In this document: one piece after another, positions 42,977 to 44,730 of the stretch
How positions within the stretch are numbered: position 1 is the first letter of the stretch
Layout of the letters: each line of letters opens with the position of its first letter
Assembly: GCA_039807535.1 (NCBI GenBank)
Contig: JBDHRL010000002.1
Location: forward strand, 3,757-67,756
Source: Rhodocyclaceae bacterium
GTDB taxonomy: Bacteria; Pseudomonadota; Gammaproteobacteria; Burkholderiales; Rhodocyclaceae
Direction of reading: 5' to 3'
Length of the DNA: 64,000 nucleotides
Made by a program: the position numbers and the translations under genes
Notes under the pieces: model-generated
What the model was told of the DNA's origin: nothing
Databases searched by the model: none
The model's input: the letters and a program-made list of their open reading frames with translations, nothing else

Positions 42977-43021
42977 TGGTCGGAGCGGCGGGATTCGGAC
43001 TCGCGACCCCTTGCACCCCAT
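42977..43021 (-). repeat. Duplicated tRNA-Pro 3' half (distal att site)
   Basis: 45-bp match to 44654-44698, anticodon loop to CCA, with 2 mismatches (42984, 42998). Confidence 0.93.
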
Positions 43022-43047
43022 AATTACGGCTCGAATTTTAGCATGGA

Positions 43048-43181
43048 ATCACCCGCATGATGATCGCGATCGCGCCGAAGCGCGCTTCGTCACAGGCGAT
43101 CGGGTGCATCACGGGCAAGAGCGCGATCCACCTGGCGCGGGTCCATGCGGAGCGCAGGTGCAACTGTTCCGGGCCAGGAGG
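43048..43181 (+). pseudogene. tnpA: Degenerate IS200/IS605 tnpA (Y1 transposase) fragment
   Basis: MMIAIAPKRASSQAIGCITGKSAIHLARVHAERRCN matches recalled TnpA MLISIPPKYAVSQVVGYIKGKSAIHLARVYGERKRN; frameshifted (N)HPH before it and F-R-A-R (for FWARG) after it. Confidence 0.8.
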
Positions 43182-43193
43182 ACCGCGGCGTTC

Positions 43194-43595
43194 CTACTCT
43201 CGGCGGATCTCGGGAATGTCCATGTCTAGCTCCTGCAGATCGGCATCCATGACTTTCGCCCGCGCGTAGTTGGGCGTGTGCGGGAACGGCCGCGTCGCTT
43301 CGAAACCTATCTTGCAGCCGAGATAGCCAGGAAACCCGGGATTGAGGCCGTGGCCGAACACGTTCTCGATCATCATCACGCCCTGCCTCGGGTCCAGTCG
43401 CGTGGCCATCGCCCATTCCACATCGCCCGAATTCCTGATGTCCACATCGTCGTCAACCACGGTCACCATCTTCAGCGGCGGAAAGGCGGCAAACGTCGCC
43501 ATAAGGGCCTGCTTCGCCCAGCCGGCGCGCTTCTGGGCAATTTTGACCACTGCATGGTAAAAGCCGCAGCCGCCATGCGAGAAATAGACATCCAT
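43194..43595 (-). pseudogene. UbiD-family decarboxylase, C-terminal fragment only
   Basis: DVYFSHGGCGFYHAVVKI, VVDDDVDIRNSGDVEWAMATRLDP, KIGFEAT; only 133 aa, prFMN-binding region absent. Confidence 0.82.
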
Positions 43596-43597
43596 AA

Positions 43598-43750
43598 CGC
43601 CCGAGGGAGACCGGAGCCGGCGTCAGCGTCGTGCGGCTCTGGAAGCCGGGGAGTGTGGATTACAAGCGGGTAGCCGAGCTGAAGGGCGTCGATCTCGACC
43701 GCTACCGCGGTGAAGGGAGGCAGGAGGTAAGGGTGACGATGGTGAGGTGA
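43598..43750 (+). pseudogene. YqaJ-family phage-type nuclease/recombinase, C-terminal fragment
   Basis: Hand translation RPRETGAGVSVVRLWKPGSVDYKRVAELKGVDLDRYRGEGRQEVRVTMVR*; no start codon, preceded by TAA; matches recalled C-termini of betaproteobacterial YqaJ proteins. Confidence 0.68.
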
Positions 43751-43813
43751 GAGTCCATCGCGGCGCGGTGGCGACAGCAATGCCGTCGCCGCGCCGTGTA
43801 GCTATCGAGATCC

Positions 43814-44227
43814 TCAGGCGGCTTCCTTCATGGCCTTGCGCGGCCGGCCGCCGAGTTTTCCGTTGGCACGCGCAGCCGCGGCCTTCGCCGGAGTCGCCGC
43901 GCTGCCACCACGCTGCCCCAGTCGCGCCATCCACATCTTCGAGCCAAGAAAACCGTCCAGCAGTGCAGGCAGGTAGATGTCGGCGTCGATCTGTGGGAAA
44001 TGGAGCCCCAGTCCCGTCGGTGTGACCTCGATCTCGCGCAACTGGGCCGGCGTTGCCCGCGCCAGGCCCTGGGCATCGTGGGCCTTGAACGACAACTCCA
44101 GGCCCGTGCTCATCTCGATGACGATGCGGCCGCGATCGTAGCGTGCCGCTTTTGCTATGGGCGAAGAACGCAGGCGCGCGCGGCCGCGTCGATTGGCCTG
44201 TTCAATCTCGCTCTTAGGGATAGCCAT
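43814..44227 (-). CDS. DUF2442 protein, putative antitoxin
   Basis: GLHFPQIDADIYLPALL core; basic tail AAARANGKLGGRPRK; SD GGAGG; start lies inside the upstream gene. Confidence 0.85.
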   Translation of the reverse strand: MAIPKSEIEQANRRGRARLRSSPIAKAARYDRGRIVIEMSTGLELSFKAHDAQGLARATPAQLREIEVTPTGLGLHFPQIDADIYLPALLDGFLGSKMWMARLGQRGGSAATPAKAAAARANGKLGGRPRKAMKEAA

Positions 44228-44462
44228 GAATATTCCTCCATTCCTCGCACAACGCTTCAACTTCGGCCTTCAATTCCGTCAGGAATGCGCTCAACATTGC
44301 CGGCTTGAAACCGAAGTTTTCGCGCAGCTCGGGCGGCCCCTTCGGGCAATTGAGCTTGAAGACGGCCTCGCATCCCTCGCCGATGATGTGCACATGCGCC
44401 GGGCGATGGTCGTTCGGATAGACAACTACGCGGCAAGCACCGATGCGCCTGATCGTTGGCAT
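44214..44462 (-). CDS. DUF4160 protein, putative toxin
   Basis: 82 aa; YPNDHRPAHVHI motif and C-terminal LCEEWRNIHG; overlaps DUF2442 by 14 nt. Confidence 0.85.
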   Translation of the reverse strand: MPTIRRIGACRVVVYPNDHRPAHVHIIGEGCEAVFKLNCPKGPPELRENFGFKPAMLSAFLTELKAEVEALCEEWRNIHGYP

Positions 44463-44467
44463 GCGAT

Positions 44468-44496
44468 ATCCTAACCGATTGGGTTTTTCACGTCAA
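44468..44496 (-). promoter_or_regulatory. Sigma70 promoter of the DUF4160-DUF2442 operon, probably leaderless
   Basis: TTGACG (44496-44491), 17 nt, TAGGAT (44473-44468), then 5 nt and the ATG at 44462. Confidence 0.65.
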
Positions 44497-44570
44497 AGGA
44501 ATATTTCCAGGCATACCTTGAGATGGTGTTGCGCTGACGCAACGGTGGGTGGTCGAAGCTTGCGGCCGAA

Positions 44571-44597
44571 AAACCGTACCGCAAACCGTACCGCAAA
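44571..44597. repeat. Tandem 12-bp direct repeat near att, integrase arm-type-site-like
   Basis: AAACCGTACCGC x2 plus AAA. Confidence 0.6.
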
Positions 44598-44599
44598 AT

Positions 44600-44622
44600 A
44601 AAAAAGCCAGCTTTTGGCTGGC
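44600..44622 (-). terminator. Terminator downstream of tRNA-Pro
   Basis: Minus strand GCCAGC-CAAAA-GCTGGC-TTTTTT. Confidence 0.7.
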
Positions 44623-44653
44623 CTTGATTTTTCTGTAACTTATTGTTTTTTAA

Positions 44654-44730
44654 TGGTCGGGGCGGCGGGATTCGAACTCGCGACCCCTTGCACCCCATGC
44701 AAGTGCGCTACCAGGCTGCGCTACGCCCCG
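44654..44730 (-). tRNA. tRNA-Pro(GGG)
   Basis: CGGGGCGTAGCGCAGCCTGGTAGCGCACTTGCATGGGGTGCAAG...GTTCGAATC...CCCCGACCA; 77 nt; TG-A-TATAAT upstream at 44750-44742. Confidence 0.97.

Follow-up and report, generated by a model that had tools for sequence, protein, structure and literature searches.

The DNA analyzed here, referred to as the window, is a 64,000-nucleotide stretch of contig JBDHRL010000002.1 from a Rhodocyclaceae bacterium. It carries an intact tRNA-Pro(GGG) gene, a displaced second copy of the 3′ half of that tRNA and, between the two, a short island that holds a toxin-antitoxin (TA) pair of the DUF4160/DUF2442 (DhiT/DhiA) type together with stumps of three other genes (Table 1). 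The direct repeat formed by the two tRNA halves measures 47 nt (42975-43021 versus 44652-44698), with 96% identity, two mismatches and a spacing of 1677 nt in the repeat search. Its common block begins with the first anticodon-loop base (position 32) and extends to the CCA, plus TT outside the tRNA, and the interval between the copies is 1632 nt (43022-44653). The attR core ends 35 nt upstream of the surE ATG. As described below, the best explanation of the locus overall, which we regard as probable, is a decayed temperate-phage remnant at tRNA-Pro with a live-looking TA pair.

Table 1. Features of the island and its borders, with coordinates in the window
Feature	Position	Strand	Basis
tRNA-Pro(GGG), intact; its 3′ 45 nt (44654-44698) form the attL core	44654-44730	-	ARAGORN; repeat search
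Intrinsic terminator directly after the tRNA, 9-bp stem and T run	44593-44625	-	terminator scan
Tandem GCGGTACGGTTT x2, in the conserved left (P′) arm	44571-44594	-	read from sequence
TTGACG-17-TAGGAT, upstream of the toxin ATG	44468-44496	-	promoter scan; conserved in L096, L099 and L102
DhiT-like toxin gene, DUF4160, 82 aa, intact	44214-44462	-	Pfam PF13711, 32.2 bits, cut-off 23
DhiA-like antitoxin gene, DUF2442, 137 aa, intact	43814-44227	-	Pfam PF10387, 50.9 bits, above cut-off
GC-rich hairpin between the convergent antitoxin gene and yqaJ stub	43757-43797		folding: -33.1 kcal/mol, z -2.78
YqaJ (lambda-exonuclease family) 3′ stump, last 50 codons and stop	43598-43750	+	synteny with L096
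UbiD-family (HmfF-like) decarboxylase 3′ stump, ~140 codons, natural stop	43194-43616	-	Pfam UbiD_C
IS200/IS605 tnpA internal stump, 47 codons, residues 64-110 of 143	43057-43197	+	tblastn against annotated tnpA, E 2e-9
attR core, displaced original 3′ half of tRNA-Pro, two substitutions	42977-43021	-	repeat; spacer homology with L011
surE, host flank, first gene of surE-pcm-nlpD-rpoS	42198-42941	-	Pfam SurE, E 3.4e-64

The tRNA-Pro repeat and its integration site

The 45-nt tRNA segment, searched with up to three mismatches allowed, occurs at exactly two sites in the 64-kb window, and none of 100 shuffled sequences gave a match. The first 23 nt of both core repeats are identical, anticodon-loop end included. 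The mismatches are two substitutions in the distal half: GTTCGAATC is changed to GTCCGAATC, by which the T-loop TTC is broken, and CGCCCCG is changed to CGCTCCG in the 3′ acceptor strand. An earlier sequence-only reading of this DNA had described a 45-bp tRNA repeat with copies 1677 bp apart and two substitutions in the distal copy, one destroying the T-loop TTC; both descriptions were confirmed, with the full identity extending to 47 nt. Its placement of the island directly upstream of surE-pcm-nlpD-rpoS also agrees with the gene listing. The downstream flank consists of surE-pcm-nlpD and an rpoS-type sigma factor gene, and the upstream flank on the minus strand is pheS-pheT-ihfA-merR.

A genome scan with SurE as the query returned 80 loci. 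The best match, in a Zoogloeaceae metagenome-assembled genome (MAG; locus L011), has a SurE identity of only 84%, and the species of the window is therefore unrepresented in that genome collection. L011 has its surE ATG 36 nt past the end of an intact tRNA-Pro(GGG), and neither a tRNA-half copy nor the repeat is present. The spacers between tRNA and surE in L011 and in the window are homologous (...GCCGCGCGG.A.ACCATG). Since the surE-side half thus occupies the former 3′ end of the tRNA, the comparison identifies the 1632 nt at 43022-44653 as an insertion. When a tyrosine integrase inserts an element into a tRNA gene, the element DNA regenerates the target and the original fragment is displaced (PMC4383910, PMC9897764). 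The attL core (44654-44698) is accordingly the part regenerated by element DNA, and the alignments support reading the repeat as the trace left by a tyrosine integrase acting at the anticodon loop.

A second relative shows an occupied site. In a Rhodocyclaceae MAG (L017), a tRNA-Pro half at 9505-9549 is identical in 45 of 45 positions, with the same ATGGGG start, and no full tRNA is present within 10 kb upstream of surE. The half adjoins a 479-aa P4-type integrase with Arm-DNA-bind_3, Phage_int_M and Phage_integrase domains. Because this integrase lies next to the identical 45-nt half, integrases with exactly this core specificity are judged to be active in the group. The L017 island is >9.5 kb long (L017:70-9549) and also carries a type II cyclic-oligonucleotide-based antiphage signaling system (CBASS) set (SAVED-HNH, SMODS, E1-like, JAB) and MerA. 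The sequence-only reading had ascribed the duplication to crossover in the anticodon loop and had proposed that the merR-tRNA-Pro-surE interval be compared in relatives. Both an empty site (L011) and a larger island (L017) were found in this comparison, which bears out the proposed crossover. The counter-case it feared, of cargo-free relatives that keep the duplication, was not encountered, L011 being without the duplication.

The same reading had named a faulty assembly as one thing that would refute it. The arrangement, including both substitutions, is present in independent metagenome assemblies (L001-L006, L166 and L167; at least six independent), and about 20 wastewater or activated-sludge runs from eight studies hold most 31-mers of the locus. 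Because of this recurrence the locus is not an assembly artefact. The alternative that no integration took place, and that the repeat is a decayed tandem tRNA duplicate or an artefact of assembly, draws on nothing beyond the bare existence of the repeat. The fragment begins exactly at the anticodon loop, as in the integrase-bearing L017; the interior is foreign DNA that is met beside tRNA-Pro elsewhere; the close relative L011 has an empty site; and the structure recurs across those eight studies. The probability of this alternative is negligible, and we consider it already refuted.

It is noted that a tRNA-Pro lies 44-144 nt before surE in many other Betaproteobacteria. Among the scanned loci, tRNA-Pro(GGG) is found 36-144 nt upstream of surE in L011, L012, L020, L029, L031, L033, L041, L047, L064, L067, L072 and L076, at about 9800-10001 in most of these 12. 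The arrangement suggests that tRNA-Pro and the surE stress operon may be co-transcribed in many members of the class. An hns-like gene stands between tRNA-Pro and surE in L017, L027 and L075, and L027 has about nine tandem copies of GCCCGAAAA just downstream of tRNA-Pro (L027:9310-9400). Gaps of 1-7.5 kb between tRNA and surE in more distant relatives were considered and set aside as uninformative on the element, as they hold ordinary genes (FemAB-like, permeases, TctC and CoA-transferase genes) and no tRNA-half repeat.

Longer relatives and the remains in the interior

The closest homologues of the DUF2442 protein, 84-93% identical, are encoded on Logan contigs (L096-L102) whose first bases lie within the 3′ end of tRNA-Pro. 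The alignment of L096-L098 with the window extends from 44681 to 43601 (79% nucleotide identity) and takes in, in order, the tRNA end, terminator, repeat pair, DUF4160 and DUF2442, followed by a complete convergent yqaJ. The homology of L096 ends at 43601, exactly at the switch to UbiD sequence in the window. Another relative, the JGI contig L103 (L103:1-1798), has the tRNA-Pro in full, together with the same arm, an untruncated yqaJ and a gene for a Rad52/Sak-like annealing protein, which was identified by eye; the homologous gene in L176-L179 carries an SSAP_Sak domain. L103 has undergone a clean 668-bp deletion (equivalent of 44524-43857), with the last 13 codons of DUF2442 left. The end of the element is thereby seen in three states: the pair and yqaJ both present in L096, the pair deleted and yqaJ intact in L103, and the pair intact and yqaJ truncated in the window.

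Homologues of YqaJ with 68-77% identity are located at the end of an ArdC-Sak-YqaJ module. This module is present in an IMG/VR phage contig (L104) with a lambda-type portal and an E-type capsid protein, as well as in terminase-bearing prophages of Rhodocyclaceae/Rhodocyclales MAGs (L176-L179), which occupy other integration sites and carry no tRNA. Since the left arm, dhiTA and the yqaJ stub trace to this temperate-phage module, the ancestor was most likely a prophage, not a catabolic island, and the traceable remnant is identified by synteny as the tRNA-proximal end of a temperate phage. As in defective prophages, the remains are syntenic with phage genes, and the excision, replication and virion genes are lost. 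The collapse of a larger element, as proposed in the sequence-only reading, is upheld by L096-L098 and L103, which share the left arm and have full-length yqaJ. The catabolic cargo that it assigned to this element is not established; the traceable parts are phage-like, and the UbiD piece has no link to the element.

On the long contigs L176-L180, the YqaJ homologues belong to elements at other integration sites that have no dhiTA. In these and further relatives, the slot between yqaJ and the prophage end holds varied TA-like genes: HigB in L176 (13421-13705), TumE with a MarR-like partner in L180 (342-979), and DUF6883/DUF4926 in L181 (1698-2266) and L182. The prophage end beside yqaJ looks like an exchangeable cargo slot, with dhiTA as putative end cargo.

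The three stumps differ in how readily they could be named. The YqaJ stump gave no Pfam or NCBIfam match and only noise in tblastn against phages, and tblastn against plasmids gave a weak, consistent signal to the lambda-exonuclease family. Its identity was settled decisively by synteny with the longer relatives: 43598-43747 corresponds to residues 356-405 of the L096 YqaJ open reading frame (ORF), with 88% identity (E 3e-22). For the UbiD stump, UbiD_C is matched at 43194-43595 (E 1.6e-24, profile positions 25-127 of 127). The 5′ break is at ~43616, and homologues align from ..PGVMDVYF onward. The closest of them, self matches aside, shares 82% identity, and the nearest homologues (≤82%) are chromosomal genes in unrelated contexts. 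All of the nearest homologues are called as ORFs of just 74-233 aa, and in the two long contexts inspected (L092:5265-6651 and L093:5240-6642) the full UbiD gene is broken by frameshifts at different positions; these short ORFs may reflect sequencing errors, pseudogenes or recoding. The IS200 stump is 64% identical in amino acids and 76% in nucleotides to the 143-aa TnpA of ISMex34, without the HUH start and the catalytic Tyr region. Its Y1_Tnp score of 18.7 bits is below the Pfam cut-off, and the NCBIfam cut-off is not reached either. A gap of 35 nt separates this stump from the attR core.

All three gene calls in the sequence-only reading (IS200 tnpA, UbiD and YqaJ) are correct in light of ISMex34, UbiD_C and the L096 synteny, and so is its statement that the interior has no integrase: tblastn with the L017 integrase gave no match in the 64-kb window, and none of the interior ORFs showed an integrase domain in the domain search. 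The UbiD and IS200 pieces may have been left by a second island in tandem at the same tRNA, or may be later insertions. No T tract was found by the terminator scan on the minus strand of the hairpin at 43757-43797.

On the tRNA side, the terminator at 44593-44625 is conserved in L096, L102 and L103 and absent from the empty site of L011, and is assigned by this distribution to the element. The arm is nearly invariant from the CCA through the GCGGTACGGTTT pair, and the next 70 nt diverge. The pair itself is invariant in five sequences (window, L096, L099, L102 and L103) while its flanks diverge, and could be an integrase arm site or a TA operator. The second possibility arises because, besides this invariance, RNA contigs have their 5′ ends just downstream of the pair (44551-44566).

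The DhiT/DhiA-type pair and its transcription

The two genes of the pair lie on the same strand with the toxin gene first and overlap by 14 nt. By their domains they are classed in the DhiT/DhiA (DUF4160/DUF2442) type II TA superfamily. A search with the DUF2442 protein gave 3046 homologues, the best 120 of which are 136-191 aa long, and both ORFs of the window are full length relative to this family of >3000 homologues. The ratio of nonsynonymous to synonymous substitution rates (dN/dS) of the toxin gene is 0.013 versus L102 and 0.13 versus L096, and that of the antitoxin gene is 0.063 and 0.11, respectively. With values of 0.01-0.13, the pair is under purifying selection. As stated in the sequence-only reading, the pair is all that is intact in the interior; both proteins score above their Pfam cut-offs, and the remainder consists of stumps.

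Members of this superfamily have been studied in a few hosts. In Dickeya dadantii 3937, the DhiT toxin inhibits growth unless neutralized by the antitoxin, and the promoter is repressed by the complex of the two (PMC8198452). In Thermus, a plasmid-borne DUF4160/DUF2442 "persistence-enhancing module" with the toxin-first order raises plasmid persistence, and a plasmid without the second ORF failed to enter the host (PMC12724237). Menshen NsnC-like proteins likewise include DUF4160 as an effector domain, and no structural homologue emerged from published searches (PMC12065111). Plasmids of Sphingobium, Cupriavidus, Burkholderia and Methylobacterium commonly carry the pair, and DUF4160 is found on Aeromonas plasmids as well. 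The PDB relatives of the antitoxin, 3k8r and 2x8n, have no assigned function. The DUF2442 protein of the window ends in a basic C-terminal tail, GGRPRK. It should be mentioned that this basic tail region (..KAAAARANGKLGGRPRK..; 43817-43940, minus strand) makes up most of several 57-77-aa ORFs on IMG/VR phage contigs (L172-L175). The tail may be a portable nucleic-acid-binding tail.

Transcription was assessed from contigs with at least 97% identity over 42400-45300 in six RNA-Seq metatranscriptomes. Besides the tRNA and short (≤61-nt) high-depth merR/ihfA pieces in two runs, only 43995-44566 was assembled from RNA, covering ~100 nt of leader, the toxin gene and the 5′ half of the antitoxin gene, with contigs that span the junction of the two genes. 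Since the RNA contigs start ~100 nt upstream of the toxin ATG, TTGACG-17-TAGGAT may be a promoter-like site or, in its AGGA part, a Shine-Dalgarno region, and the main TA promoter is probably near the GCGGTACGGTTT repeats. The sequence-only reading had credited the pair with a promoter and Shine-Dalgarno sequences. Shine-Dalgarno sequences are indeed read before both ORFs; TTGACG-17-TAGGAT as the main promoter is doubtful, as RNA extends upstream of it.

Inside the antitoxin gene, at 43995-44207, the RNA-Seq contigs come to an end, and none of them reach surE in the six metatranscriptomes. They give no support to promoter capture, which had been suggested in the sequence-only reading as one way in which the remainder is held. 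It is quite unlikely that the remnant has been domesticated to supply the promoter that drives surE-pcm-nlpD-rpoS after the insertion cut off the tRNA promoter. In relatives, surE follows tRNA-Pro by 36-144 nt without a terminator, and here the tRNA has a terminator behind it. From the antitoxin gene to surE the minus strand has no predicted intrinsic terminator; a strong hairpin, however, stands after the antitoxin gene. An extended -10-like TGCTAAAAT was seen, by eye only, at 43035-43043 on the minus strand, 13 nt before the tRNA half, but this candidate promoter was rejected by the promoter scan. One library marked "RNA?" gives a contig from 44010 to pcm; it is an RT-PCR (reverse-transcription PCR)/whole-genome shotgun library, and the spanning contig has a flat, DNA-like depth, whereas the true RNA-Seq contigs never extend as far as surE. 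The main promoter of rpoS in E. coli is located inside nlpD, which also counts against this possibility. We note that TGCTAAAAT faces surE, with the same spacing as TGCTATAAT before the tRNA in L011. Co-option of the remnant, with the autoregulated TA promoter or a promoter created at the junction driving or modulating surE-pcm-nlpD-rpoS, is very unlikely; if true, the state of a selfish TA module would be wired into the general stress-response operon.

Origin, retention and comparison with known systems

We propose that a temperate phage would have integrated into tRNA-Pro(GGG) of an uncultured Rhodocyclales-type betaproteobacterium of activated sludge, its tyrosine integrase crossing over at the 5′ edge of the anticodon loop. 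The last 45 nt of the tRNA would have been remade from phage DNA, and the original half, pushed beside surE, would then have gained its two substitutions. The tRNA-proximal end of the element would have comprised the terminator, the conserved arm, the DhiT/DhiA-type operon and, convergent with it, a yqaJ-sak recombination module. Deletions or rearrangements, probably more than one, would subsequently have removed the integrase, the P arm and every phage function. Three junctions are left, which join the yqaJ and UbiD stubs, the UbiD and IS200 stubs, and the IS200 stub and the attR core. By analogy with the studied relatives, the DUF4160 toxin would arrest growth, the DUF2442 antitoxin would bind and neutralize it, and the complex would repress its own promoter. 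In this proposal we infer the order of the deletions, the immobility of the remnant, the toxin activity and the idea that the pair outlived its neighbours owing to the cost of losing it.

Several observations weigh against parts of the proposal. No full-length relative with both ends, from which the integrase of the element family could be read, was recovered. A metagenome pattern scan with the arm sequence returned one short contig only, L103; the arm pattern is absent from the viral contigs scanned, and a scan of viral contigs with DUF2442 gave matches to the C-terminal tail only. The L017 island and the window insert have no common sequence beyond the att core, and the UbiD and IS200 pieces were not found in any related element. 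On the NCBIfam equivalog model for DhiT (NF048015), the toxin of the window scores 12.7 bits against a cut-off of 100; since it is far under this cut-off, the DUF4160 protein is a superfamily member, not a DhiT orthologue, and its presumed toxin activity is carried over from the tested relatives. Another organism with a near-identical copy, or DNA carry-over, could be the source of the RNA contigs. L103 lost the pair yet kept yqaJ and the Sak-like gene, so that loss of the pair is survivable. Finally, the Logan contig data are blind to rare excision.

The pair may have outlasted its element in more than one way, and retention was a point on which the sequence-only reading offered both addiction and a defence benefit. 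The latter finds no support, as no PADLOC defence-system model matched either protein of the pair. Addiction is plausible, has good precedent (PMC2654960) and agrees with a pair that is intact, constrained and transcribed; it is unproven because L103 is viable after its clean loss of the pair. A neutral leftover, in which the pair is intact merely for lack of time and nothing holds the remnant, is an unlikely explanation. It would accord with the pair deletion in L103, which did not kill the lineage, and with the lack of matches to defence families. The yqaJ stub also appears still coding-like (dN/dS 0.12 versus L096), suggesting that its truncation was recent. However, the attR half has fixed two substitutions in 45 nt, yet both TA ORFs are full length. 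The dN/dS values of 0.013 and 0.063 versus L102 (dS ~0.4-0.5) argue for continuing constraint, with the qualification that the divergence may largely predate the decay. The pair is, in addition, the sole transcribed part of the locus in the six RNA-Seq sets.

Neither a 1677-nt skip nor a circle joint was found in the DNA runs, in which the depth of the island equals that of the flanks. Joints from 42941 to 44654 were rejected as excision, being derived from a ~87% identical species with an empty site. The island is present in every contig with an identical SurE or MerR that reaches far enough. Because there is no integrase and the attR arm (P arm) has given way to other DNA 35 nt from the core, the remnant is most likely immobile. 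We consider it highly improbable that it can still be mobilized in trans or in cis, in the manner of a cis-mobilizable element (CIME) or a satellite, by the integrase of a related element at the same tRNA. The survival of both core repeats with their first 23 nt identical, the highly conserved left arm and the circulation of elements of the same core specificity in related hosts (L017, L096 and L103) would fit such mobilization, for which the CIME concept offers a described precedent (PMC6323972). Against it stand the replacement of the P arm beside attR by the IS200 stump, the lack of an integrase in the window, the flank-like depth with no excision or circle joint in the DNA runs, and the fixation of the island wherever it could be examined. 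A phage remnant that is fixed in the chromosome and keeps its TA pair thus remains our preferred description of the locus.

No new mechanism is involved, as tRNA-half duplications, integrase-less remnants and surviving TA modules are all well documented. The locus is a clean, well-bracketed example of end-stage prophage decay, with an empty site, longer relatives and a pair-less relative available for comparison. It may be used as a natural test of whether TA pairs outlast elements through addiction.

We have compared the remnant with four kinds of known systems. Islands and prophages in tRNA genes mapped by Islander have a regenerated tRNA and a displaced 3′ fragment as endpoints (PMC4383910), and tRNA gene fragments are a common by-product of integration (PMC9897764). 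Like these islands, the foreign DNA of the window is bracketed by an intact tRNA and a direct 45-nt 3′ copy, its identity block begins in the anticodon loop and a relative with an empty site exists. Unlike them, the interior is 1.6 kb with no integrase, whereas calls of the Islander type require an integrase gene. Cryptic prophages of E. coli K-12 retain TA pairs. The functional genes that survive in the remnant are likewise a TA pair, and the terminal slot they occupy contains other TA-like pairs in relatives. Decay has gone much further here than in the cryptic prophages, with no phage gene intact, and the stabilizing role is putative, one relative having lost the pair. A stabilizing role is documented for mosAT in the SXT integrative and conjugative element (ICE; PMC2654960).

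CIMEs have been described in streptococcal ICE families (PMC6323972). The remnant resembles them in being flanked by attL and attR with the integration and transfer genes lost. It differs from them in its phage-like, not ICE-like, ancestor, in an attR that has no arm and carries two substitutions, and in that no mobilization was seen in the contig data. With DhiTA of Dickeya and the Thermus module the locus shares the same Pfam pair, the toxin-first overlapping bicistron and the association with mobile DNA. Its toxin is distant from Dickeya DhiT (12.7 bits on the equivalog model), and its antitoxin has 137 aa and a basic C-terminal tail that the 92-aa Thermus protein lacks. With this locus, the little-studied DhiT/DhiA superfamily gains a member that is chromosomal, transcribed and widespread in the environment.

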